Source: Candidatus Krumholzibacteriia bacterium
GTDB taxonomy: Bacteria > Krumholzibacteriota > Krumholzibacteriia > WVZY01
Assembly (NCBI GenBank): GCA_029863805.1
Contig: JAOTUR010000097.1
Location: 1-11,467, forward strand
DNA length: 11,467 bases
Direction of reading: 5' to 3'
In this document: one piece after another, positions 287-11,467 of the stretch
Position numbering within the stretch: the first letter of the stretch is position 1
How the letters are laid out: the number at the start of each line of letters is the position of its first letter
The notes under the pieces: generated by a model
Told to the model about the DNA's origin: nothing
What the model saw: the letters and a program-made list of their open reading frames with translations, nothing else
The model's database searches: none
Program-made: the position numbers and the translations under genes

Positions 287-721
287 CTATCTCCCTTTGA
301 TGTAGTTTTCCAGCTGCTCGATCATGAACTCCTGCTCTGAAATAGTGGCCTTGATCACGTCACCCGACGAAAAGACGCCCAAAAGCCGCCCCTCCTCGAG
401 AACCGGCAGATGACGGATACGCTTTTCAGTCATGATCGCCATACACTCCTCGAGCGAATGCGTGGGTGTGACGTATAGAACCTTCGTAGTCATGATGTCC
501 CTTACCGGTGTTTGCTTGGACGAACGTCCCTTGAGGATCACCTTTCTCGCGTAATCCCGCTCGGAAACGATTCCCACCAATTCGCTCCCTTCCATGACTA
601 GCAGCGCCCCCACGCTCTTGTCCGCCATCAGCGCGATGGCATCATACACGGAGGTTTCGGGAGCGACTGACCACACGTCGTTCCTCTTCTTTTCCAGGAG
701 CTGCCGGACGGTTGTCATCAT
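287..721 (-). CDS. Stand-alone CBS-pair (tandem CBS domain) protein, about 144 aa
   Basis: The ORF 287..766 (-) translates to two CBS-like repeats (VYDAIALMADKSVGALLVM...LVGIVSERD and LEECMAIMTEKRIRHLPVLEEGRLLGVFSSGDV). I prefer the internal start MMTTVRQ at 721 because AAAGGAG lies 6 nt upstream (reverse complement of 722-735 reads gaaaggagtccaATGATG). The TAG stop is at 289-287, only 9 bp from the convergent mscS stop. Confidence 0.8.
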   Translation of the reverse strand: MMTTVRQLLEKKRNDVWSVAPETSVYDAIALMADKSVGALLVMEGSELVGIVSERDYARKVILKGRSSKQTPVRDIMTTKVLYVTPTHSLEECMAIMTEKRIRHLPVLEEGRLLGVFSSGDVIKATISEQEFMIEQLENYIKGR

Positions 722-750
722 TGGACTCCTTTCTTGACACGGGTTTTTGC

Positions 751-802
751 GACCGGCCTGAATCACCGGCCGGGCCGGTCAATTATAGGTCAAACTCTGA
801 CC
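751..802 (-). promoter_or_regulatory. 5' leader/promoter region of the CBS gene with two palindromes (GACCGGCC-14 nt-GGCCGGTC at 751-780; GGTCA-AACTC-TGACC at 788-802) and a minus-strand TATAAT (787-782)
   Basis: The inverted repeats are read directly from the sequence. The reverse complement of 782-787 is TATAAT, which would put the GC-rich hairpin inside the 5' UTR of the CBS-protein mRNA, upstream of its AAGGAG RBS. Confidence 0.3.
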
Positions 803-971
803 GGTTGCATCAGTTAGATGGTTCTTTTGGGGCCGGCGAGGTCGCCGGAAAACCTGGCGGGCGATTCGTTTTCGTGTTATTTTAGGCTCCTCGATCTTAA
901 ACAAGTCGTGAGTGACGATCGAAGACTGCTCGATCACGCCATCACCCGCCTTGAACCGATAGGGTCCGGCA

Positions 972-3917
972 ATGAGCCGATACAAAATCGACCGTGTTTT
1001 CTTATTTGGTGTCGTCATCTTGATGCACACCACCGCACTTCCCCTTCGTGCGCAGGAGGAGTATTTTCAACAGTTTGTACACTATACGATTCGCGCGCGA
1101 CTTGACAGCAAGAACCACAGACTCACTGGCAAAGAGACGATCGTCTACAGGAACAACTCGTCCGACACCCTCAAGACGTTTTATCTACATCTCTATCCCA
1201 ATGCGTACAAATCAAAGAATACCGCGTTGATCAAGGATATCCGGCGCTCGTTCAATTATTCGTGGATCGATCTCCCCAAAAAGCACAGGAGCTATCTGAA
1301 CATCTCGGGCGTAACGGTAAACGGCCGGGATGTGAATGCAAAGATCGACGACACCATCGCCATGTTCGATCTGGCCGCGCCGCTCTTGCCGGGCGACAGT
1401 CTGGAGGTATTCCTCGAGTTCGACCAAAAGATCCGGCGGCACATTGGTCGCGCGGGGTACAGGGGAGAGCAATACGATTTTGCGCAGTGGTATCCCAAGG
1501 TCGTGGTCTACGATGAGGACGGGTTTCACCCCGACAAGTTTCGCCGGGGTGAGTTCTACGGCGAATTTGGCACGTTCGATGTGCACCTCGAAGTCCCGGA
1601 GCACTACGTGGTGGCTGCGACTGGGGTGCTGAAGGACGGTGATCCCGGCTGGACCCTCAACGCCGTGGACAAGAAGAGTGCAGCGAGGAAGAAGGGCGAA
1701 ACCGCTTACAAGACCGTGCACTTCCACGCCGAAGATGTACATGACTTTGCGTGGAACGCCAATCCGGCGTTTGTCGTCCAGGATACAACGTGGAACGACA
1801 TTCACATCAAGAGCTTTTTCCGCAAGCATAATCGGGCTTGGAAAGACACGACGTTGGTTCACGCCGTGCGGGCGATACAGTGGCTGTCTGAACGTGTCGG
1901 ACCCTATCCCTACCCACAGGTGAGCGTGGTCGAAGCGTTGCTTAGGGGTGGTATGGAGTACCCCATGCTGGTGATGGACGGCCGGGTTAGCGAGGGCCTG
2001 GTGTTGCACGAGATCGCCCACATTTACCACTACGGCATTCTCGCAAACGACGAGCGAGAGGAGGCCTGGCTGGACGAGGGCTTTGCCACATTTCAGTCCG
2101 CCTGGTATCAACTGGAACGTTACGGTGAGCATGGAATAACCCGCGACTGGAATTGGTACCAGAAGATCACTCCCCAGTACACGGTGCTGGGAAACGCGCG
2201 GCGATGGCTTTTCAGAGTCGTGCGCCCGGGCTACGGCGAACGCATCTCCACACGGGCCGAGGATTTCAAAAACAGTTATGGAGAGATGGTGTACCGCAAG
2301 GCGGCGCTGGTGCTTTTCAGCCTGCGCTATGTCGTGGGCGAGGAGAACTTCGATCGCATTCTCAAACAATACTACGACAAGTGGAAGTTAAAACACGTAA
2401 ACGAGAGACGTTTTCAGACGGCTTGCGAAGAAGTAAGCGGCATGGATCTATCGTGGTTTTTTGAGGAGTGGCTGCATACAAAAAAGATTTGCGATTATCG
2501 CCTGGCCGAGGCAAAGACTGCACCGAGCGAATCAGGCGACGCGTATGCTGTAGACATCAAGATCGAGCGTCTGGGCGAGATCATCATGCCTCTGAAACTA
2601 GAATTCACTTTCGCCGGCGGCGGCAAAGAGACGGCACGGTTGGACGGCCGCCCGCGAACCATAAAGCAATCGTATGCATTCCCCGAGAAACCCAAGGCGG
2701 TTGCGCTGAATCCGGGAAATGAGATTATCGACATCAATATGTCCAACAACTTTCTACCTCGCAGGCGGGCGCTGCAAATCGACTGGCCCAATAACGAGTA
2801 TTATCCCGAGGACGCTTATCAAATCCGTTATAGCCCGTTTGTTTGGTACAACGACGTCGATCATTTGAGGCTGGGGCTGCACTTGAAGGGCAGCTACTTC
2901 GACTGGCATCGCCGTGTGAGGCTTGGTGTCTATTACGGCACCAACAGTGAGCGTTTGGACTTTCTGGCGTCGTATACCAAACCGGTCAGGATTTTTGGTA
3001 ACAATGGGACTTTGAAGACTTCGGGTTACAAGCTGGAAGGCAGACAGGATTTTGCGTTAACCCTCGATCTCAAGAAGAGAAACGAGCTGATCCGCCCCCC
3101 CACGCAGCGGCTGAGCATCGGAGTCAACTATCACGAACTGACCGATCGCCGCTATGTGGCCAACGCGACAGAAACCTATCAAACCGGTGCTGTGGTTATT
3201 CCCCTACAACTCGGATACAGCATCGATCCACAGCTCGACATCCTCCAGACAGAACTCCGCCTGGGACTTCGCTTCGGCAGACGGTGGTTTGGGGGCGATT
3301 ACAAATACAGCAGCTTCACCAGTTCGGCTGCCGTCAGGACCCGGCCACAGCTGGTGCCCTTTGATGCCGGTCTTCGGCTCTTTCTGGGAATCGTCGGTGG
3401 CAGCATGCCGCTGCAGGAGAAATTCAGTCTGGCGGGTGCGGGACCGCTAGGGCAAGAGAAGTTGTTTTTCTTGAGGAGCGATGGGGCAATCTGGCCCGAT
3501 GTGAATTATCACATGCCGGGGGACGGCAACCTGCGGGGATACGCGGACGGGGCTTTTGGTGTGAACCGGCTGCTGGCAGTGAATCTTGAACTCGGCAAAG
3601 CCATCCCCTGGCTCTCCAAAGCGCCGGACCGCTGGCTGGGAACCGCAAAGCTCGTGGCTTTTGCCGACGCGGGAACTGTCTTCGATCGCGATAACCCCGT
3701 AACGAGCAGTACTCGCATCCAGCAGCTGGTCGACGAAGGGATTTTGGACAAGGGTCTTTTTGACGCTGGGGTCGGGTTGCGGTTAAAGCGGCACCTTGGG
3801 GTCTACAACGTGGATCTTCGTTTCGATGTTCCCTTCTACGTAAACCACCCAGAGATCAACGGCGAGAAAGACGAAACCAAGTATCGCTACTTGCTGAGCC
3901 TCACATCGTTTTTCTGA
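972..3917 (+). CDS. Secreted gluzincin (M1-like) zinc metallopeptidase domain fused to a C-terminal Omp85/bacterial-surface-antigen-type outer-membrane beta-barrel (981 aa)
   Basis: N-terminal signal-peptide-like segment MSRYKIDRVFLFGVVILMHTTALPLRAQ. GGMEYP (GAMEN-like) sits at about aa 325. HEIAH is at aa 346-350 (nt 2007-2021), with E in WLDEGFATF exactly 18 residues after the second His, the HEXXH-X18-E gluzincin signature of family M1. An all-beta-looking linker spans aa ~508-590 (AVALNPGNEIIDINMSNN). From about aa 592 (nt ~2746) an amphipathic beta-strand-rich ~390-aa region carries the FSLAGAGPLG...GDGNLRGYADGAFG (Omp85 loop-6 [VIL]RG[FY]-like) and AFADAGTVFD motifs. The protein ends in ...KYRYLLSLTSFF (C-terminal Phe, the OMP signature). 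The ORF is a single intact frame. Confidence 0.85.
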   Translation: MSRYKIDRVFLFGVVILMHTTALPLRAQEEYFQQFVHYTIRARLDSKNHRLTGKETIVYRNNSSDTLKTFYLHLYPNAYKSKNTALIKDIRRSFNYSWIDLPKKHRSYLNISGVTVNGRDVNAKIDDTIAMFDLAAPLLPGDSLEVFLEFDQKIRRHIGRAGYRGEQYDFAQWYPKVVVYDEDGFHPDKFRRGEFYGEFGTFDVHLEVPEHYVVAATGVLKDGDPGWTLNAVDKKSAARKKGETAYKTVHFHAEDVHDFAWNANPAFVVQDTTWNDIHIKSFFRKHNRAWKDTTLVHAVRAIQWLSERVGPYPYPQVSVVEALLRGGMEYPMLVMDGRVSEGLVLHEIAHIYHYGILANDEREEAWLDEGFATFQSAWYQLERYGEHGITRDWNWYQKITPQYTVLGNARRWLFRVVRPGYGERISTRAEDFKNSYGEMVYRKAALVLFSLRYVVGEENFDRILKQYYDKWKLKHVNERRFQTACEEVSGMDLSWFFEEWLHTKKICDYRLAEAKTAPSESGDAYAVDIKIERLGEIIMPLKLEFTFAGGGKETARLDGRPRTIKQSYAFPEKPKAVALNPGNEIIDINMSNNFLPRRRALQIDWPNNEYYPEDAYQIRYSPFVWYNDVDHLRLGLHLKGSYFDWHRRVRLGVYYGTNSERLDFLASYTKPVRIFGNNGTLKTSGYKLEGRQDFALTLDLKKRNELIRPPTQRLSIGVNYHELTDRRYVANATETYQTGAVVIPLQLGYSIDPQLDILQTELRLGLRFGRRWFGGDYKYSSFTSSAAVRTRPQLVPFDAGLRLFLGIVGGSMPLQEKFSLAGAGPLGQEKLFFLRSDGAIWPDVNYHMPGDGNLRGYADGAFGVNRLLAVNLELGKAIPWLSKAPDRWLGTAKLVAFADAGTVFDRDNPVTSSTRIQQLVDEGILDKGLFDAGVGLRLKRHLGVYNVDLRFDVPFYVNHPEINGEKDETKYRYLLSLTSFF

Positions 3918-3938
3918 TAACAAGATCCGCGCTATGCA

Positions 3939-5474
3939 TCAGTGGTCGGCACGGATGTCCACGCCCGTCATCTCCGGCGGTGGGTCGATGCCCAGATAGT
4001 TGCAGATGGTCGGAGCGATTTCCTTGAGAGCCCCATCCCGAATCAACTTTCCTCGGTAGTGTTGATCGACCAGGACGCAAGGCACCGGCAAGGTGGTGTG
4101 CGCCGTATGCGGCCCACCGGTTGCCGGGTCGACCATCATCTCGGCGTTGCCGTGATCGGCGCTGACGATGGCGGCATCCGTCTCGAGATCCATCGCATCG
4201 AGTACACGACCGACGCAGGTGTCCACGGTCTCGACGGCCCTGATTGCCGCCTCCAGCACACCGGTGTGGCCCACCATATCCGGGTTGGCATAATTGCAGA
4301 TAATGTAATCATGTCGTCTTTCGCCCAGGGTCTTAACCAGAGTGTCGGTCAGCTCATAGGCGCTCATCTCGGGCTTCATATCGTATGTGGCCACTTTGGG
4401 AGAAGGGATCAGGATGCGATCCTCTCCCCGGAAGCTCGCCTCCTCGCCGCCATTAAAAAAGTAGGTCACATGGGCATACTTTTCCGTTTCCGCAATACGC
4501 AGGCTCGTGCACCCGGCATTAGCCGTAACCTCGGCGAGGATGTTCTTGATGTGAATTGGCGGAAAGGCAACGGGCAGTGCAAAACGACGGTCGTACTCGG
4601 TCATGCACACGAACTTGACCTTTGGACACCGATCGCGCACAAATCCCTCGAAATCTCGATCGTTGAAGGCGCTGGTAATCTGCCGGGCCCGATCGGCCCG
4701 AAAATTGAAAAACACAATCGCATCGCCATCGATGACGTTGCCAACCGGCTCACCTCGGTCGTCTACTACAACAATAGGCTCGATGAATTCGTCGGTGACC
4801 CCTTCATCGTATGAACCTTGCAGCGCGACGCGACAATCCCTGGTTTGGTTTCCCTTTCCCACCGTGTAGGCATCGTAGGCCTTCTTTACGCGATCCCACC
4901 GTTTGTCCCGATCCATACAAAAATAGCGGCCGACCACCGTGGCGACGCTTCCGATCGCTTTGTCTGTAAAGATCTGCTCGAGCTCGGTGAGAAATCTTTT
5001 GCCACCGGTGGGGGAGGTATCGCGTCCATCCATGATGGGATGGACAAAAACTGTCCCCACTTTGTTGCGCTTGGCCATTTCCAGAAGCGCGTGGAGATGA
5101 TCCAGAGAACTGTGCACACCACCCGACGAGAGCAGCCCCATCAGATGAAGCCTGCCTTTGGGCTGCACCGCGCGAACCGCGCTCAGCAGCGCCTCGTTCT
5201 CGAAGAAATCGCCGGCTTGGATAGACTTTGAGATCCTCGCTATGTCCTGATAAACCACGCGTCCAGCACCCAGGTTGAGGTGGCCGACCTCGCTGTTTCC
5301 CATCTGTCCATCGGGCAGCCCCACGTGAGCGCCGGATGTGTTGAGCGTCGTATACGGGTAGTCCTTACAGATTCTGTCGACCACCGGCGTCCTGGCCATC
5401 TTTACCGCGTTTGCACGAGCGTCTTCGCGCAGACCCCAGCCGTCCATGACAATAAAGACAACGCGTCTTTTCAA
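3939..5474 (-). CDS. gpmI: 2,3-bisphosphoglycerate-independent phosphoglycerate mutase (iPGM)
   Basis: 511-aa translation with hallmark iPGM motifs: VVFIVMDGWG, GNSEVGHLNLGAGR, HLMGLLSSGGVHS, ADHGNAE, and the expected length. The start codon at 5474 appears to be TTG (reverse complement reads TTG AAA AGA CGC GTT = M K R R V), preceded by a G-rich stretch. The stop TGA is at 3941-3939, 21 bp from the convergent upstream gene. Confidence 0.9.
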   Translation of the reverse strand: MKRRVVFIVMDGWGLREDARANAVKMARTPVVDRICKDYPYTTLNTSGAHVGLPDGQMGNSEVGHLNLGAGRVVYQDIARISKSIQAGDFFENEALLSAVRAVQPKGRLHLMGLLSSGGVHSSLDHLHALLEMAKRNKVGTVFVHPIMDGRDTSPTGGKRFLTELEQIFTDKAIGSVATVVGRYFCMDRDKRWDRVKKAYDAYTVGKGNQTRDCRVALQGSYDEGVTDEFIEPIVVVDDRGEPVGNVIDGDAIVFFNFRADRARQITSAFNDRDFEGFVRDRCPKVKFVCMTEYDRRFALPVAFPPIHIKNILAEVTANAGCTSLRIAETEKYAHVTYFFNGGEEASFRGEDRILIPSPKVATYDMKPEMSAYELTDTLVKTLGERRHDYIICNYANPDMVGHTGVLEAAIRAVETVDTCVGRVLDAMDLETDAAIVSADHGNAEMMVDPATGGPHTAHTTLPVPCVLVDQHYRGKLIRDGALKEIAPTICNYLGIDPPPEMTGVDIRADH

Positions 5475-5499: not shown

Positions 5500-7758
5500 T
5501 CAGTTTGCTTTCAGTTGAGACCGAACTTTGTCCAGGTTCACCTGCGCGCTACGATTCGCCGGATCGATCACAAGCGCCTTCTCGAACTCTGTCTCGGCAA
5601 GGTCCAACAACCCCATCGTAGCATAAATAGATCCCAGCGTGAGATGACCGTTGGCATATTTGGGTTCGATCGCCACCGATTCTTCGCTGTAGCGGCGAGC
5701 CCGATCGAGCTGTTTGAGTGACATGAACATCACCGCCAGATTGTTCATGGCGTAAACATCTTCGGGGTTTAGCTGGATGGCCTTTTTTAGCGATGCCTCC
5801 GCCTTGTCGTACTGCTTCAGCTTGCCATAACAAACCCCGAGATTATTGAGCGCACCGGGAAAATTCGGATTGATCGCCAATGCCTTTTCGAACTCGGCTA
5901 TCGCCTCACTGTACCTGCCTTGTTCCTGGTATCGTTGTCCCAGGTTGTTGTAGGCGTCCGGATTGTCGGGAGTGATATAGCCGAGGGCCTCGAGCTTTTT
6001 TAGCGCCTCATCGGTGGCCGCTCCACCGCTGGTGAGCGCCAGGTCGTCAACCTCGCGCTCCCGATCGAGCGAGGACACCACGCTCCGGTTCACACGCGAT
6101 GCGAGAACATCTGCAAAAGCGCTCTCGAGAATCTTGCCCGGCATATCCTGCGGCTTTGGTAATCCCTGCAAGGCGAGGAAGGTTGGGGCAATATCCAGGA
6201 TAGAGGCGCCCTCGATCGCGAACCCTGTGCGAATGCCGTTGCCATAGAGACAGATGATCCCATCGAGGCGATGCCAAAAGGCCGCTTTGCCCGCCCAAAT
6301 CTCGGGACGCTGCTGGGGTCGCGACTCACCGCTTTTGAAGCCATGGTCTGAGGCTACGATGAGAACCGTGTTGTCATCGCACTTGTCGATGAACTCACCG
6401 ATGATGCTATCCTGCATAACGTAGGCGGCGGTGACCGCATCCTTGTTTATCTCGTATCCCGATTCATCGACGTGAGGTCGACGGGGTGGCGCATAGTGCA
6501 TGAAGAGGTGCTTTGTCGCATCCACCAACTCAAAATAAGTCGCCAAGAAATCGGGCTGATCACCGGCAAAAAGGTGATTGGTAATGCGGCGATAGGTTTT
6601 GGCGGAGGCATACAGCATGAGCATGCTGCTGATCGGATTCTTGGGATCGAACGCGCTCGATCGGTTCTGTATGAACGCCGCCCGATCCAGATGTACGAAC
6701 GGATAAAACTCCTCGTAACTCACTGAGGTGCTCGGCGTCACCAGACCCCTTAGCTCGTCCATTCGCTCGACGGGCGAGACAGTGCCTGCCGTCGCCTCCC
6801 CGGCATCCGCGTAGGCCAGATAGCCAAAACGATCCGTCACCATAACGCCACTTATCGGTTCCGCCGGAAACGTCGCCAGCCATCCGATCACGTCGACCGA
6901 CCGGTGGTAGTCGCTGAGGATATTCCAGAATGCATCCACCTTGCGATACAGCCGGCTTATCGGTAATTTCTTTCCCGTCTCGGGATCCGCCACGGTGAAA
7001 TTCAGGATGCCGTGCTCTTCGGGCAGTCTTCCGGTCGCCATCGTTGTCCAAATCAGCGGTGAGAGCAAAGGCTCGATCGAGGTGAGCGGGCCGCTGGCGC
7101 CCTCGCGAACCAATTTCTTGAAGTTGGGCAAGCGATTCTGGGCAATGAGTTCGTCGATGATGTGCCAGTCTGCACCGTCGACGCCGACGAAAACGACTTT
7201 GCGAAGCGGCCGGGGATCTACAGAAAGGGGCAAAACATCACCGCTGACCTGCCACTCGTCCACTCGGCATGACATGACAGAGAAGCCGGCGTTTGTTACC
7301 TCTCCCGCTATACCGGTGACGATGGCTTCCGCAAAGCCATCGGGCATCGCTCCCGTACTCGTCACAGAAAAGTTCGCCGTCTCGATCTCGACGGTCTCTT
7401 TTACAATTCGCTCCGAGCCGCTGTAAAAATCTTCACCCAGCGTGCTGTAGATGGTTTGCGCCGTTCCCGGCGGCACCTCCAGGCGCAGGCTGACAGCGAC
7501 CGAGACATCCACTCCGTCGCCCGACAGAACCGGATAGGCTCCCTGGTCAGGATACCGGTACTCCACCTCTCCGACCGGGTAGATGATAAACGGTCCCGCA
7601 AAAGGACGTACAAAATGCGTGCCGGCACCATAGCCCGCAGACATCCCCTTCTTGCCGATAAGGATTGCCTGGTGACCGTTGGGGACGCGCTTAATAGTGC
7701 TCCCCAGCACCACGGCGATGACTGCTACACCCAGCGCGGGTAGGAGGTATTTTTTCAT
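5500..7758 (-). CDS. Membrane-anchored multidomain protein: N-terminal TM/signal anchor, SPFH(band-7)-like region, type I phosphodiesterase/nucleotide pyrophosphatase (alkaline phosphatase superfamily) domain, C-terminal TPR repeats (752 aa)
   Basis: Start chosen at MKKYLLPALGVAVIAVVLG (ATG at 7758-7756). GAGGA lies 9 nt upstream (reverse complement gaggataactgccATG). The track ORF extends 41 codons further upstream, but without an RBS there. VPNGHQAILIGKKG...GTHFVRPFAGPF resembles the start of SPFH/band-7 domains. VVFVGVDGADW...SPLIWTTMATGRLPEEHGI...ASDHGF match the nucleophile and metal-ligand motifs of PF01663-type NPP/AP-superfamily enzymes. The C-terminus has about 4-5 TPR units (AYNNLGQRYQEQGRYSEAIAEFEKALAINP; GALNNLGVCYGKLKQYDKAEASLKKAIQLNP; AMNNLAVMFMSLKQLDRARRYSEESVAIEP; GHLTLGSIYATMGLLDLAETEFEKALVIDP). 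The stop is 25 bp upstream of the gpmI start on the same strand. Confidence 0.8.
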   Translation of the reverse strand: MKKYLLPALGVAVIAVVLGSTIKRVPNGHQAILIGKKGMSAGYGAGTHFVRPFAGPFIIYPVGEVEYRYPDQGAYPVLSGDGVDVSVAVSLRLEVPPGTAQTIYSTLGEDFYSGSERIVKETVEIETANFSVTSTGAMPDGFAEAIVTGIAGEVTNAGFSVMSCRVDEWQVSGDVLPLSVDPRPLRKVVFVGVDGADWHIIDELIAQNRLPNFKKLVREGASGPLTSIEPLLSPLIWTTMATGRLPEEHGILNFTVADPETGKKLPISRLYRKVDAFWNILSDYHRSVDVIGWLATFPAEPISGVMVTDRFGYLAYADAGEATAGTVSPVERMDELRGLVTPSTSVSYEEFYPFVHLDRAAFIQNRSSAFDPKNPISSMLMLYASAKTYRRITNHLFAGDQPDFLATYFELVDATKHLFMHYAPPRRPHVDESGYEINKDAVTAAYVMQDSIIGEFIDKCDDNTVLIVASDHGFKSGESRPQQRPEIWAGKAAFWHRLDGIICLYGNGIRTGFAIEGASILDIAPTFLALQGLPKPQDMPGKILESAFADVLASRVNRSVVSSLDREREVDDLALTSGGAATDEALKKLEALGYITPDNPDAYNNLGQRYQEQGRYSEAIAEFEKALAINPNFPGALNNLGVCYGKLKQYDKAEASLKKAIQLNPEDVYAMNNLAVMFMSLKQLDRARRYSEESVAIEPKYANGHLTLGSIYATMGLLDLAETEFEKALVIDPANRSAQVNLDKVRSQLKAN

Positions 7759-7926
7759 GGCAGTTATCCTCGGTGACGGCTGCGCAGATCGAAGTCGGTG
7801 AGCCTGAAAAGACGGGATCTTCGAGTCGCCGCAGCGTAATGCGTCGATTTCCAAAGTAGCCACTTTGCGAGTCGGGGTCAAGCGGGTTGCAGCCCGGTGC
7901 CTGGGCGAAACCGTTTGTTTTTACGC

Positions 7927-7956
7927 TAGTCATGCCGCCGGGACCTAAGATATAAT
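7927..7956 (+). promoter_or_regulatory. Putative sigma70-type promoter for the GT2/rmlD-like operon (-35 TAGTCA 7927-7932, 18-bp spacer, -10 TATAAT 7951-7956)
   Basis: A perfect TATAAT hexamer is seen directly in the sequence. A 4/6 match to TTGACA sits at the correct spacing. It lies in the 195-bp divergent intergenic region. Predicted only; it would place the transcription start near 7963. Confidence 0.3.
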
Positions 7957-7993
7957 GTGGCCTTATCGATCGCCCGGCGTCCGGTGCCCCACC

Positions 7994-8923
7994 ATGATAG
8001 CCTCGAGCCAAACAACGTCTTCCACCGCTGATCCTGCCCATACGCTACGAGTGGCTATTATCGTGCTGACGTGGAACGGCAAGGCGCTGACGCTCGACTG
8101 TCTCGAATCGCTTGTCGCCCTCGACCATATGAACACGGACATCATCGTCGTCGACAACGCCTCCGCAGACGGCACCCCGCAGGCGATCGAACAGCGTTAC
8201 GGCGATCGCATCACAGTGATCGTCAACGAACAAAACCTGGGGTACTCGCAAGGCAACAACGTCGGCATTACTCACGCGCTCGATACCGGCGCAGGATACA
8301 TATTGCTACTCAATAACGACACCATCGTGGACCGTGCGCTCGTAGACAATCTGCTATACGCTTTCGCAACCCATGCACGGACGGGCATAGCTGGGCCGAA
8401 GATTTACTTCGCTTCGCCACCCGATCAGATTTGGTTTGCGGGGGGAGAGGTTTCGCTTGCCAAAGGCACGGCTCGGCATATCGGCATCCGCCATCGGGAC
8501 GTCGGACAATTCGACTCGATGCGTGAAGTGGACTACGTCAGTGGTTGCGCGCTGATCGCAAAACGCGAGGTTTTCCAGACGATCGGTCTTCTTGATCCAT
8601 CGTACCGGGCTTACTTCGAGGACACGGACTTTTGCATGCGAGCGAGAAGGCACGGTTTCGAGATCCGCTATGTACCCGCCGCGAAAGTCTGGCACAGAGT
8701 GTCATCCAGCGTCGGCGGCCAGTTGAGCTGGCGCAAAATGTCCCAAAAATTTAAGAGCACGCTTCGATTTTTCGCACGTTACTCTTCACTACATCACTGG
8801 CTCACCATACCTCTGTTCTTTGCTTTTGACGTGGTGAGAATTGTTGCTCTGGTTCTACGTGGCAGAATAAGAAACGTGACGGATGTCGAGAATGCATCCG
8901 GGTCGGGCGGAGACCAACCATGA
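7994..8923 (+). CDS. Family 2 glycosyltransferase (GT-A fold), with C-terminal membrane anchor
   Basis: LRVAIIVLTWNG...DIIVVDNASADGT (DxD-type motif)...GYILLLNNDT...YFEDTDFCMRARRHGFEIRYVP are typical GT2 signatures. The C-terminal HWLTIPLFFAFDVVRIVALVL is a hydrophobic hairpin. The track ORF begins at 7955, but that ATG overlaps a perfect TATAAT (7951-7956), so the downstream ATG at 7994 (MIASSQ...) is preferred. Neither start has a clear Shine-Dalgarno sequence, so the start is uncertain (7955 is the alternative). The stop TGA 8921-8923 overlaps the next gene's ATG. Confidence 0.75.
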   Translation: MIASSQTTSSTADPAHTLRVAIIVLTWNGKALTLDCLESLVALDHMNTDIIVVDNASADGTPQAIEQRYGDRITVIVNEQNLGYSQGNNVGITHALDTGAGYILLLNNDTIVDRALVDNLLYAFATHARTGIAGPKIYFASPPDQIWFAGGEVSLAKGTARHIGIRHRDVGQFDSMREVDYVSGCALIAKREVFQTIGLLDPSYRAYFEDTDFCMRARRHGFEIRYVPAAKVWHRVSSSVGGQLSWRKMSQKFKSTLRFFARYSSLHHWLTIPLFFAFDVVRIVALVLRGRIRNVTDVENASGSGGDQP

Positions 8924-9780
8924 CAATCGCCATCATCGGCGCCGATGGTCAGCTGGGCAAAGATGTGCAGCTGGCGCTAAAGGCGCACGACACGAGGCCC
9001 ATCGCCCACGGCGAGGTCGACATCACCGATGCCGCGAAGGTCGTCGCGGCCATCGCAGCCATTCACCCCGACTGGGTGATCAACACCGCCGCCATGACTC
9101 ACGTCGATGACTGCGAGGGGCAGCATATGAGGGCGTTCGAGATCAACGCCTTGGGTGCCCGTCACGTGGCTGAGGCGAGCCGGCAAGTCGGTGCCGCCTT
9201 GATCCATATAAGCACCGATTACGTGTTTGATGGTGAGAAGAAGACGCCCTACATGGAAGGGGATGCCACACATCCGTTAAATGTCTACGGAATCTCCAAG
9301 CTCGCAGGTGAATTCTATGTCCGCAACACCTGCCCCGTTTACTATATCATTCGCACCAGCGGTCTCTACGGTACCCACAAATGCAGGGGCAAGGGCCAGA
9401 ATTTTGTAGAGACCATGCTGAAGCTCGCCAAGGAAAAGGAGAGCCTGCGTATCGTGAGCGACGAAGTGTTGACACCCACGTTTACCGAGGACCTGGCGCG
9501 GCAGATCGATGTGCTGGTCGAGTCTAAACCACCCCACGGCATCTATCACGCAACTAACGACGGCGCATGTTCGTGGTTCGATTTTGCCAAAGAGATCTTC
9601 CGCATTGCGGCGATTGAGGTCGCCGTCGAAGAAACGACGGCCTCGCAGTGGAATGCCCCGGCCAGGCGTCCGGCATACTCGGTGCTCGAAAATAAGGCGC
9701 TAAAACGAGCCGGCATCGACGCGATGTCGCACTGGAAGGACGCACTGGGGCGTTATCTGTCCAAGAAGATCGGGCGCTAG
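8920..9780 (+). CDS. rmlD: dTDP-4-dehydrorhamnose reductase family (RmlD-like) NAD(P)H-dependent sugar-nucleotide reductase
   Basis: 286 aa. N-terminal Rossmann motif IAIIGADGQLG. YGISK (the YxxxK catalytic pair of SDR/RmlD). The RmlD-typical layout (INTAAMTHVDDCE...ISTDYVFDG...P...NVYGISKLAGE) and length. GGAG lies 7 nt upstream of the ATG at 8920. The start overlaps the GT2 stop (ATGA), indicating translational coupling. Confidence 0.75.
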   Translation: MTIAIIGADGQLGKDVQLALKAHDTRPIAHGEVDITDAAKVVAAIAAIHPDWVINTAAMTHVDDCEGQHMRAFEINALGARHVAEASRQVGAALIHISTDYVFDGEKKTPYMEGDATHPLNVYGISKLAGEFYVRNTCPVYYIIRTSGLYGTHKCRGKGQNFVETMLKLAKEKESLRIVSDEVLTPTFTEDLARQIDVLVESKPPHGIYHATNDGACSWFDFAKEIFRIAAIEVAVEETTASQWNAPARRPAYSVLENKALKRAGIDAMSHWKDALGRYLSKKIGR

Positions 9781-10156: not shown

Positions 10157-11467
10157 ATGCGTAAAGTGAGATTAACTGTTCTAGCAACAATGGCTTGTGT
10201 CATTGCAATGCCTGCTGGCTCTCACGCGAGTCGGGTTGACCGACCGTATCAGCCCGACCCCCTGTCCTACGTCGCCCCCAGCCGCAACTTCCACACCATT
10301 CACACGCGGTTGGATCTCGACCTCGATTTGAAGCAACAATCCATCTCCGGTTCGGTCACCCACACCATGCGTGCGCTGCGGCCGCAAGTCACGTCCATCC
10401 GGTTGAACTGTGTCGGGCTAACCATCGAGGACGTCCACGTCAATGGCCAGCGGGCGGATTTCGAGTATCCGGTCGCCGGCGAGTTGGCCACGTCGTGGAT
10501 CGAGGTGGCCGACACCAAGGAAGCCGGTGACCAACTGGTCATCCATAGCGGCTCGCCTTTGCCCGAAGACCGTGATTTCGAGGTGACGATTCGCTACCGG
10601 GGGTCGCCTTCCGAGGGGCTGTATTTTGTGGCGCCGGAGAAAGGGATAAGCGACAAGCGGTACGAAGTGTGGGCACAGGGGGAGGGGGAGGACAATCGGT
10701 ACTGGATACCCTGCTACGACTACCCAAACGACAAGTCCACCTTTGAGGGGATCTTTAGGGTCGACAAAGGCTACTACGTGTTGTCAAACGGGGTGTTGGT
10801 CGACAAGAGGGATCTAGGTAACCAGACGCAGTATCACTGGAAGCTCGATACCCCCCAGGTGTCTTACTTGATCACGGTTGCCGCGGCCAATTACGAGGTA
10901 GTCGAGGACAAGTGGCGCGATGTACCTCTCCTGTACGTCGTTCCACCGGGGACCGACCGAGCCACCGTGCTGCGCGGTTTTGGTCTCACACCCAAGATGA
11001 TGGAGTTCTTTTCGGAGTACATAGGGATCGACTACCCGTTCAAAAAATACGGTCAAGTTGTTGTTCAGAACTTTATTTACGGCGGCATGGAGAACACCAC
11101 CGCCACCGTTATGAATGCGCGGACGCTCTACGACGAGCACATGGCGGTGACGCAGACTCAGCAGGGTCTGGTCGCCCATGAACTGGCTCATCAATGGTGG
11201 GGCGACATGGTCACGTGCAACGAGTGGTCACACATCTGGCTCAACGAAGGATTCGCGACTTACTTCCAATCGCTTTTCCGGGAGCACCACGATGGTGACG
11301 ACGCTTTTCGTTATCAGATCGACCAGCGCCATAAAGCCGTCATCACCAATGATGAACGCGACGCCCGTCCCGTCGTGGTCGACTTTTACAACCGTAAGGA
11401 CAGCCGGAACAGCGCCAACGTGTACACAAAAGGGGCCAGCGTGCTTCACATGCTGCGTTTTCTAATT
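10157..11467 (+). CDS. pepN: M1 family aminopeptidase N-like zinc metallopeptidase, secreted (N-terminal 437 codons; 3' end lies outside the window)
   Basis: ATG at 10157 preceded by GAGGAGG about 13 nt upstream. Signal-peptide-like N-terminus MRKVRLTVLATMACVIAMPAGSHAS. Canonical M1 motifs: GGMENTT (GAMEN exopeptidase motif), HELAHQWWGDMVT (HEXXH at aa 341-345), WLNEGFATY with Glu 18 residues after the second His. The frame runs open to the window end (exactly 437 codons). Confidence 0.85.
   Translation, partial: MRKVRLTVLATMACVIAMPAGSHASRVDRPYQPDPLSYVAPSRNFHTIHTRLDLDLDLKQQSISGSVTHTMRALRPQVTSIRLNCVGLTIEDVHVNGQRADFEYPVAGELATSWIEVADTKEAGDQLVIHSGSPLPEDRDFEVTIRYRGSPSEGLYFVAPEKGISDKRYEVWAQGEGEDNRYWIPCYDYPNDKSTFEGIFRVDKGYYVLSNGVLVDKRDLGNQTQYHWKLDTPQVSYLITVAAANYEVVEDKWRDVPLLYVVPPGTDRATVLRGFGLTPKMMEFFSEYIGIDYPFKKYGQVVVQNFIYGGMENTTATVMNARTLYDEHMAVTQTQQGLVAHELAHQWWGDMVTCNEWSHIWLNEGFATYFQSLFREHHDGDDAFRYQIDQRHKAVITNDERDARPVVVDFYNRKDSRNSANVYTKGASVLHMLRFLI

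Follow-up and report, generated by a model that had tools for sequence, protein, structure and literature searches.

A 981-amino-acid (aa) protein encoded in an 11,467-nucleotide stretch of DNA from a Candidatus Krumholzibacteriia bacterium (contig JAOTUR010000097.1 of assembly GCA_029863805.1; the whole stretch is hereafter called the window) combines an M1-type zinc peptidase and a C-terminal β-barrel of the Omp85 superfamily in one chain (M1-Omp85). Its predicted structure and conserved residues suggest, with a probability of roughly 0.6 in our estimate, that the barrel is embedded in the outer membrane and keeps an active M1 peptidase on its periplasmic side. The gene occupies positions 972–3917 including the stop codon (+ strand), starts with ATG, and consists of one unbroken frame, and its extent is backed by full-length colinear homologs. 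An earlier note, made without database searches, had proposed that an M1 peptidase and an Omp85-like barrel are joined in a single polypeptide; the uninterrupted frame, the Pfam matches of both parts above the cut-off, and the colinear homologs bear this out. Peptidase_M1 (PF01433; aa 341–500, 60.2 bits, cut-off 27.7) and Omp85 (PF01103; aa 837–944, 31.0 bits, cut-off 24) were the only matches above the cut-off. Both had been expected in that note, while a POTRA domain, also considered there, was not found. The motifs that it listed (GGMEYP, HEIAH, WLDEGFATF with E369, LRGY, AFADAGTVFD, and the terminal LSLTSFF) all lie where it had placed them, the signal peptide that it had described is present in the sequence and in all sampled homologs, and so is a C-terminal strand resembling a β-signal.

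A full-length AlphaFold2 (AF2) model was built from a 63-sequence alignment, and residue conservation was counted over 63 homologs. The model had a predicted local distance difference test score (pLDDT) of 91.7 and a predicted template modelling score (pTM) of 0.89. When this model was compared with the PDB using Foldseek, the M1 enzymes IRAP, ERAP1, ERAP2, and APN dominated the matches (E ~1e-22), with about 600 aligned columns; therefore, the alignment covers M1 domains I, II, and III. Domain I, the N-terminal β domain with a β-saddle fold (aa ~31–290, positions 1062–1841), was all-β in DSSP at residues 35–284, and the Foldseek alignment ran through it from the N-terminus. The thermolysin-like catalytic domain II (aa ~291–505, positions 1842–2486) was delimited by Pfam and by alignments to solved M1 enzymes, and DSSP assigned a helical domain to residues 293–502. 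NCBIfam gave weak partial matches alone, to the aminopeptidase N and leukotriene A4 (LTA4) hydrolase equivalogs.

The catalytic residues of domain II are intact. The zinc-binding and catalytic motif HEIAH (H346, E347, and H350; positions 2007–2021) aligns with HEMAH of the alanine aminopeptidase 7v9n, and its three key residues are invariant (63/63). The third zinc ligand, E369 (positions 2076–2078), lies in WLDEGFATF (aa 366–374), 18 residues past H350 as in HEXXH-X18-E, and is kept in 62 of the 63 homologs; WLDEGFAT aligns with WLNESFAT of solved M1 enzymes. Y441 (positions 2292–2294), a putative transition-state-stabilising Tyr, was located by alignment to 7v9n and 8t41 (VYRKAA versus TYAKGA) and is invariant (63/63). 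GGMEYP (aa 326–331, positions 1947–1964) is a variant of the exopeptidase motif GXMEN in which the Glu is kept and the Asn is replaced by Tyr; G327, E329, and P331 were found in 63/63 homologs, and M328 and Y330 in 62/63. The M1 module looks active because these catalytic residues are conserved and align with those of solved M1 enzymes. Exo- versus endo-specificity cannot be read off from the GGMEY(P) motif.

The N-terminal 27 residues constitute a Sec-type signal peptide, MSRYKIDRVFLFGVVILMHTTALPLRA (positions 972–1052), which has no lipobox Cys and is followed by QEEYFQQ at the putative cleavage site. In the AF2 model, this region had low pLDDT and contained a helix at residues 8–20. Every sampled homolog had a Sec-type N-terminus that lacked a lipobox, and in each the mature part opened with the conserved YFQQ.

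The region between the catalytic domain and the barrel had been regarded in the earlier note as a β-rich linker of about 85 aa, with a POTRA-like fold raised as a question for aa 508–590. It proved instead to be a folded module: DSSP assigned six strands and no helices to residues 509–579. A Pfam search of aa 506–615 gave no match of any kind at E ≤ 1, and no POTRA match was obtained at E ≤ 1 for this segment or the whole protein, nor in any of 54 divergent relatives. In contrast, profile alignments to tricorn factor F3 and PepN-type enzymes reached their domain III, and the Foldseek alignments to four-domain M1 enzymes were long enough to run through aa 506–582. This helix-free β-sandwich (aa ~506–582, positions 2487–2717) is thus best read as a predicted M1 domain III and not as POTRA, and therefore the barrel would sit in place of the helical domain IV. 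Domain IV occurs in most long M1 enzymes, not in all members. In the present protein it is missing, and the residues after domain III form the barrel. The connector from domain III to the first barrel strand (aa 583–615, positions 2718–2816) has a short helix (590–593) and a short strand (599–603) in DSSP; N583, I585, D587, N593, and P606 in it are invariant in the 63-sequence alignment. C485 and C507 were considered as a disulfide that might report on the compartment. Both residues are common, and hydrophobic residues replace them in distant relatives, yet they do not co-vary (C/C in 38, C/V in 10, A/C in 4, and other mixes); therefore, they give no disulfide evidence on the compartment.

The C-terminal part (aa 616–981, positions 2817–3914) is predicted to be a 16-strand transmembrane β-barrel of the Omp85 type. 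Sixteen long strands spanned aa 616–979 in both the full-length and the barrel-only AF2 models, the latter with a pLDDT of 92.2. In fold searches, the barrel matched BamA, TamA, Sam50, and FhaC and was closer to these than to other outer-membrane barrels. A profile search against the PDB (alignment A2) was filled by M1 enzymes and gave no Omp85 chain at E ≤ 0.01; therefore, the membership of the barrel in this superfamily derives from Pfam, the motifs, and two fold searches. In Omp85 proteins, the lid-lock consists of (L/M/V/I)RG(Y/F/W) at the tip of loop 6 and FxDxG in strand 13 (PMC11358297). Here, the extracellular loop 6 (aa 811–865, 55 residues between strands 11 and 12; positions 3402–3566) carries NLRGY, with LRGY at aa 854–857 (positions 3531–3542); R855 and G856 are invariant (63/63), and N853, L854, and Y857 nearly so. 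Its partner motif FADAG (aa 897–901, positions 3660–3674) lies inside the strand of residues 891–903, namely strand 13, as part of AFADAGTVFD (aa 896–905), with F897 and D899 found in 63/63 homologs and G901 in 62/63. The chain ends in RYLLSLTSFF (positions 3885–3914), a strand 16 resembling a C-terminal β-signal, in which R972 is invariant (63/63) and the terminal Phe is kept in 60 of the 63 homologs. Strand 16 (974–979) is short, having 6 residues versus 11–14 in the other strands.

The fusion is shared by a large family. All 120 best database matches were colinear with the protein over 78–100% of the query at 43–65% identity and had 806–1051 aa (most, 970–985 aa). They came from metagenome-assembled genomes (MAGs) of Krumholzibacteria and Latescibacteria and, if named, were called M1 family aminopeptidase or metallopeptidase. 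A search with the C-terminal 474 residues against 1.84 billion representatives gave 311 clusters at 50% identity, and nearly all complete proteins among them had 900–1070 aa with the match at the C-terminus. When 54 divergent representatives were scanned with Pfam, Peptidase_M1 was found in 48, the Omp85 model in 7 (best E, 3.9e-15), and neither POTRA nor PD40 in any (0/54). In the nine longest relatives, Pfam found M1 only and no PD40/WD40. A scan of species-representative genomes (alignment A1) detected a relative in at least 595 genomes; the best 80 genomic loci were colinear over residues ~10–981, down to 29% identity. These 80 loci came from Latescibacterota, Krumholzibacteriota, KSB1, Marinimicrobia/Neomarinimicrobiota, Gemmatimonadota, and MAGs similar to Bacteroidota. 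The Gemmatimonadales branch comprises more than 3,000 clusters at 90% identity, which are named M1 peptidases and carry no Omp85 flag from Pfam. No cultured host appeared among the top matches of two protein searches and of the genome scan, all of which were MAGs or metagenomes, and tblastn of the barrel against plasmids gave zero matches. The distribution is wide and vertical, and we count this in favor of a barrel-anchored periplasmic enzyme. Six of the 54 scanned representatives had no M1 match. Some short matches (P0133 with 485 aa, P0157, P0215, and P0223; ~440–530 aa) had the barrel match from residue ~24–75 onward; they could be barrel-only relatives resembling the noNterm type or gene fragments.

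In the established topology of Omp85 proteins, loop 6 lies between strands 11 and 12, as all solved members show, and strand 1 starts at the periplasmic face. Since the loop with the lid-lock motif was found in this canonical position, strand 1 is predicted to have its N-terminus, to which the M1 module is attached, in the periplasm. With strand 1 starting there and the pore presumably shut by the lid-lock, the enzyme would lie under the periplasmic mouth of the barrel and would not be exported. In PlpD, the one fusion of an enzyme and an Omp85 barrel that has been studied, the enzyme likewise stays periplasmic (PMC11116518). With a pTM of 0.89 for a chain of two modules, enzyme and barrel seem to be docked in a fixed way. 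We propose that the protein is exported by the Sec pathway and loses its signal peptide, after which the C-terminal 366 residues would adopt a 16-strand, BamA-like barrel structure within the outer membrane, with loop 6 locked in the lumen. The N-terminal 550 residues would form a catalytically competent M1 zinc peptidase (domains I–III), with the barrel in the sequence position of domain IV, and this enzyme would be held rigidly beneath the barrel. There, on the inner side of the outer membrane, it may trim oligopeptides, either products of envelope proteolysis (HtrA/DegP, M16) or incoming peptides. M1-Omp85 would then be part of envelope proteostasis or peptide turnover.

For gene neighborhoods, the open reading frames of 84 relative loci and the window were clustered, and the representatives were scanned with Pfam. 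In 26 loci of the Marinimicrobia type (L037–L082, e.g., L049:1-8400, L068, and L047), a cluster on the same strand was kept in the order cyclophilin peptidyl-prolyl isomerase (PPIase), patatin, DsbD, TlpA/Redoxin-like lipoprotein, and M1-Omp85. The order was kept even though the M1-Omp85 proteins of these loci share 30–87% identity (median, 45%), and the gap to the nearest upstream gene was 0–120 bp in most of them. In 7 loci, a gene for HtrA/DegP (Trypsin_2 and two PDZ domains) followed M1-Omp85 on the same strand within 165 bp; in other Marinimicrobia-type loci, genes for an M14 carboxypeptidase or for proteins of the type IX secretion system (T9SS) type followed. In 8 loci of the Krumholzibacteria type (L016, L018, L020, L021, L024, L036, L063, and L077), one or more genes for M16 peptidases (insulinase/pitrilysin type) lay divergently on the − strand, 121–281 bp upstream of M1-Omp85. 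The Marinimicrobia-type context, which combines envelope redox and folding functions with proteolysis, points to, without proving, envelope turnover and fits a periplasm-facing peptidase.

Several observations weigh against this proposal. The evidence that places the enzyme on the periplasmic rim of the barrel is the predicted pTM together with strand parity. A 16-strand barrel with an invariant lid-lock would be a costly anchor, which suggests a role beyond tethering. Because the exopeptidase motif is GGMEY and not GXMEN, aminopeptidase specificity is not assured. The patatin-like protein of the Marinimicrobia-type cluster has no signal peptide and appears to be cytoplasmic; therefore, the cluster is not purely an envelope operon. 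Finally, the proteostasis-type neighborhood was found in one large clade only, and the gene is solitary in the lineage of the window itself.

As a rival reading, which we consider unlikely, M1-Omp85 would serve the quality control of outer-membrane proteins (OMPs). The BamA-like barrel would bind C-terminal β-signals or unfolded strands at strand 1 or the lateral seam, and the M1 enzyme would degrade the captured, unassembled OMPs from their free N-terminus. The protein would then correspond, in fused form, to BepA working on BAM or to ERAP1 as a 'molecular ruler'. The position of the barrel in place of M1 domain IV agrees with this, as does the invariance of the lid-lock and other barrel residues, which matches that of the catalytic site and indicates that the barrel is under an Omp85-specific constraint. 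A short strand 16 is also seen in barrels with a weak seam; the HtrA/DegP, DsbD, TlpA-like redoxin, and PPIase neighbors fit envelope folding and quality control; and the zinc protease BepA acts on BAM-stalled substrates (PMC13067283). However, the protein lacks POTRA domains that could take up substrates, M1 enzymes typically cleave short peptides as exopeptidases and are not unfoldases, the lid-lock may be structural only, and the supporting neighborhoods come from a single clade.

In ERAP1, domain IV holds the C-terminus of the substrate. By analogy, the barrel might functionally replace domain IV, with strand 1 and the seam capturing the C-terminal β-signals of unassembled OMPs or of OMP fragments while the docked M1 site trims them from the N-terminus; we regard such a replacement as quite unlikely. 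If it were true, the protein would be a single-chain, energy-independent device for OMP quality control or a 'molecular ruler', and several phyla of the Fibrobacterota–Chlorobiota–Bacteroidota (FCB) group would use M1-Omp85 instead of BepA-type factors.

The earlier note had raised the possibility of type V self-export resembling type Vd. In this reading, the barrel carries the M1 module across the membrane for display on the cell surface or for release, so that it would digest external proteins. The order of an N-terminal enzyme and a C-terminal Omp85 barrel is that of PlpD/FplA as first described (PMC4104836), TpsB-type Omp85 proteins do translocate polypeptides, and the host lineages are regarded as degraders of external polymers. 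We nevertheless judge self-export to be improbable. Hanson et al. 2024 located the patatin domain of PlpD exclusively in the periplasm and considered it energetically implausible that a folded enzyme would be exported through an Omp85 barrel that is closed (PMC11116518). The type Vd model is thus itself disputed, and the precedent that PlpD offered for export is weakened because its enzyme stays periplasmic. In the window protein, export would require the 33-residue connector to run through a lumen that the locked loop 6 already occupies, and a globular zinc enzyme of ~62 kDa, not a β-helix able to fold vectorially, would have to cross unfolded without an energy source. The lack of POTRA, the invariance of the pore-closing lid-lock, and strand parity likewise stand against export, and the high pTM suggests that the two modules are packed compactly and in a fixed manner, the enzyme being attached where strand 1 begins on the periplasmic side. 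Additionally, surface enzymes in these organisms are served by T9SS signals; Por_Secre_tail and CHU_C occur on neighboring proteins.

It is very unlikely that the barrel is a coupled uptake channel passing oligopeptides across the outer membrane straight to the docked peptidase for nutrition. The apparent docking at the periplasmic barrel mouth, suggested by the pTM, would suit this function; Marinimicrobia, Gemmatimonadota, and Latescibacterota are consumers of peptides or proteins; and M14 and M16 peptidases and T9SS substrates are encoded near the gene in some loci. However, loops 4, 6, and 7 shut barrels of the BamA/TamA type, and the present family has an invariant lid-lock; nutrient diffusion channels are not known among Omp85 proteins; and peptide uptake in FCB bacteria is normally attributed to TonB-dependent transporters of the SusC/RagA type. 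The fusion is not a frameshift or assembly artefact: nothing was found in favor of two separate genes having been merged, a case that the earlier note had also raised, and it is refuted by the intact frame, hundreds of homologs that are colinear over residues ~10–981 and come independently from various assemblies and phyla, the conserved residues across the junction, and the confident whole-chain model.

We compared M1-Omp85 with known systems. It resembles PlpD/FplA in having an N-terminal hydrolase and a C-terminal 16-strand Omp85 barrel in one chain with a Sec signal peptide, and, as in PlpD (PMC11116518), the enzyme is probably periplasmic and near the barrel. The hydrolase of PlpD/FplA is a patatin lipase, whereas here it is an M1 zinc peptidase with no Patatin match in Pfam, and the segment between enzyme and barrel is POTRA in PlpD/FplA but an M1 domain III β-sandwich here. 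Dimerisation and a strand-swapping lid, features of PlpD/FplA, are not known for M1-Omp85.

Ten subfamilies of the Omp85/TpsB superfamily were distinguished by Heinz & Lithgow 2014, and those without POTRA include 'Patatin-like', 'Metallo' (PF00149), 'WD40-like', and 'noNterm' (PMC4104836). Their Table S3 lists ~95 'WD40-like' proteins, including H1XQ58, D0MEQ5, and C1A6X2, with Phyre2 matches to TolB, to the BamA/TamA barrel, and to a peptidase-like region, the last matching M1 aminopeptidases (1z5h, 4kxd, 3qnf, and 4fgm) or collagenase G (PMC4104836). This subfamily was later summarised as having 'divergent WD40 and peptidase domains' (PMC11358297). PF01433 is absent from the domain tables of Heinz & Lithgow, and aminopeptidases are unmentioned in their main text (PMC4104836). 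M1-Omp85 is like the 'WD40-like' subfamily in that a gluzincin/M1-like region precedes a BamA-like barrel without POTRA, and that subfamily is found in overlapping phyla (Gemmatimonadota, Bacteroidota/Rhodothermota, and Calditrichota). Unlike that subfamily, the window protein, the 54 divergent relatives, and the nine longest relatives have no PD40/WD40 propeller. M1-Omp85 is also set apart from it, as described in Table S3, by an M1 region that Pfam detects, with an intact catalytic site and domains I–III, and by a barrel that directly takes the place of domain IV. Within the literature library that was searched, we found no paper describing or characterising an M1-Omp85 fusion beyond that table. 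The architecture, which the earlier note did not recognise, thus has a partial precedent in this listed subfamily with an M1/gluzincin-like region and a barrel. Enzyme-Omp85 fusion is already a known kind, and the M1 version without POTRA or propeller is a new form of it.

The other types without POTRA and the soluble enzymes provide further comparisons. As in M1-Omp85, the 'Metallo' proteins (PF00149) have an enzyme domain in place of POTRA, and the question of a periplasmic or exported enzyme is common to both; however, their enzyme has a calcineurin-like phosphoesterase fold with an additional CtkA-like module. The 'noNterm' proteins likewise have a lid-lock barrel without POTRA (PMC11358297), preceded by a periplasmic stub of 20–40 residues and not by a 550-residue enzyme. 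With the four-domain M1 enzymes (ERAP1, IRAP, APN, PepN, and tricorn factor F3), M1-Omp85 shares the fold of domains I–III, HEXXH-X18-E, and the catalytic Tyr. It differs from them in having GGMEY instead of GXMEN, in its predicted location in the cell envelope, and in having a membrane barrel where they have the helical domain IV, a cap over the active site that in ERAP1 binds substrate C-termini. [quoted passage not shown]

Omp85 proteins have long been held to do nothing other than assemble outer-membrane proteins or translocate polypeptides. The 2024 re-evaluation of PlpD suggested that the Omp85 scaffold has been re-used for other, enzymatic roles on the inner side of the outer membrane (PMC11116518). 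M1-Omp85 would be a second and far more widespread example, in at least 595 species, with an unrelated enzyme and no POTRA. This uncharacterised family occurs very widely across uncultured FCB phyla and suffers from systematic under-annotation; its carriers include abundant soil Gemmatimonadales and marine Marinimicrobia. It is nearly invisible in annotation because its members bear the name 'M1 family metallopeptidase' and the barrel usually goes unflagged, so that metabolic reconstructions of these phyla place them wrongly in the cell. The exchange of domain IV for a membrane barrel would offer a testable case of a soluble peptidase re-engineered into an envelope machine.

The window contains a second M1 gene, as the earlier note had reported, starting at position 10157 (10157–11467, + strand) and running off the 3′ end. 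It encodes a canonical secreted aminopeptidase with the signal peptide MRKVRLTVLATMACVIAMPAGSHA, matches to Peptidase_M1_N and Peptidase_M1, and the motifs GGMEN, HELAH, and WLNEGFATY; its ortholog in the close relative L002 has 881 aa and C-terminal HEAT repeats. The suggestion that this enzyme is a functional partner of the fusion protein is not supported, as genes on both strands lie between the two, and the second gene, although present in L002, is absent within 8 kb in the Latescibacterota chromosome L001. We therefore treat the pairing as lineage synteny and not as a co-oriented operon.

In the window, a CBS-domain gene (287–766, − strand) is divergent from the fusion gene, and the gene for the phosphoglycerate mutase iPGM is convergent with it across a 21-bp gap. 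The 205 bp between the CBS-domain gene and the fusion gene (767–971) are the presumed promoter region. No sigma-70-like promoter was found in it by a scan that covers no FCB-type promoters, and a scan of 600–4100 for sigma-70 promoters and intrinsic terminators gave no signal above shuffled expectation. Upstream of the fusion gene, three relatives carry a trio of genes on the − strand (L001:1-6562, L002:3-5267, and L003:1-2025) that is absent from the window; they encode a ~165-aa protein, a 900-aa protein with faint CLIPPER_2 matches, and a very large OmpA-domain protein. The neighborhood consisting of iPGM, phosphodiesterase-TPR, GT2, RmlD, and second M1 genes is common to the close relatives L002 and L003, but not to L001. 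The phosphodiesterase-TPR gene of the window (5500–7881, − strand) encodes a 793-aa protein with an unusual set of domains, namely SPFH/Band 7 (aa 65–175), type I phosphodiesterase/nucleotide pyrophosphatase (229–518), and TPR (624–731). L002 and L003 have syntenic orthologs of 756 aa and 764 aa, respectively, in which the phosphodiesterase and TPR domains were seen. The genes for a GT2 glycosyltransferase and RmlD (dTDP-4-dehydrorhamnose reductase) at 7955–9780 (+ strand) overlap by 4 bp and form a cell-envelope sugar module that is kept in L003.

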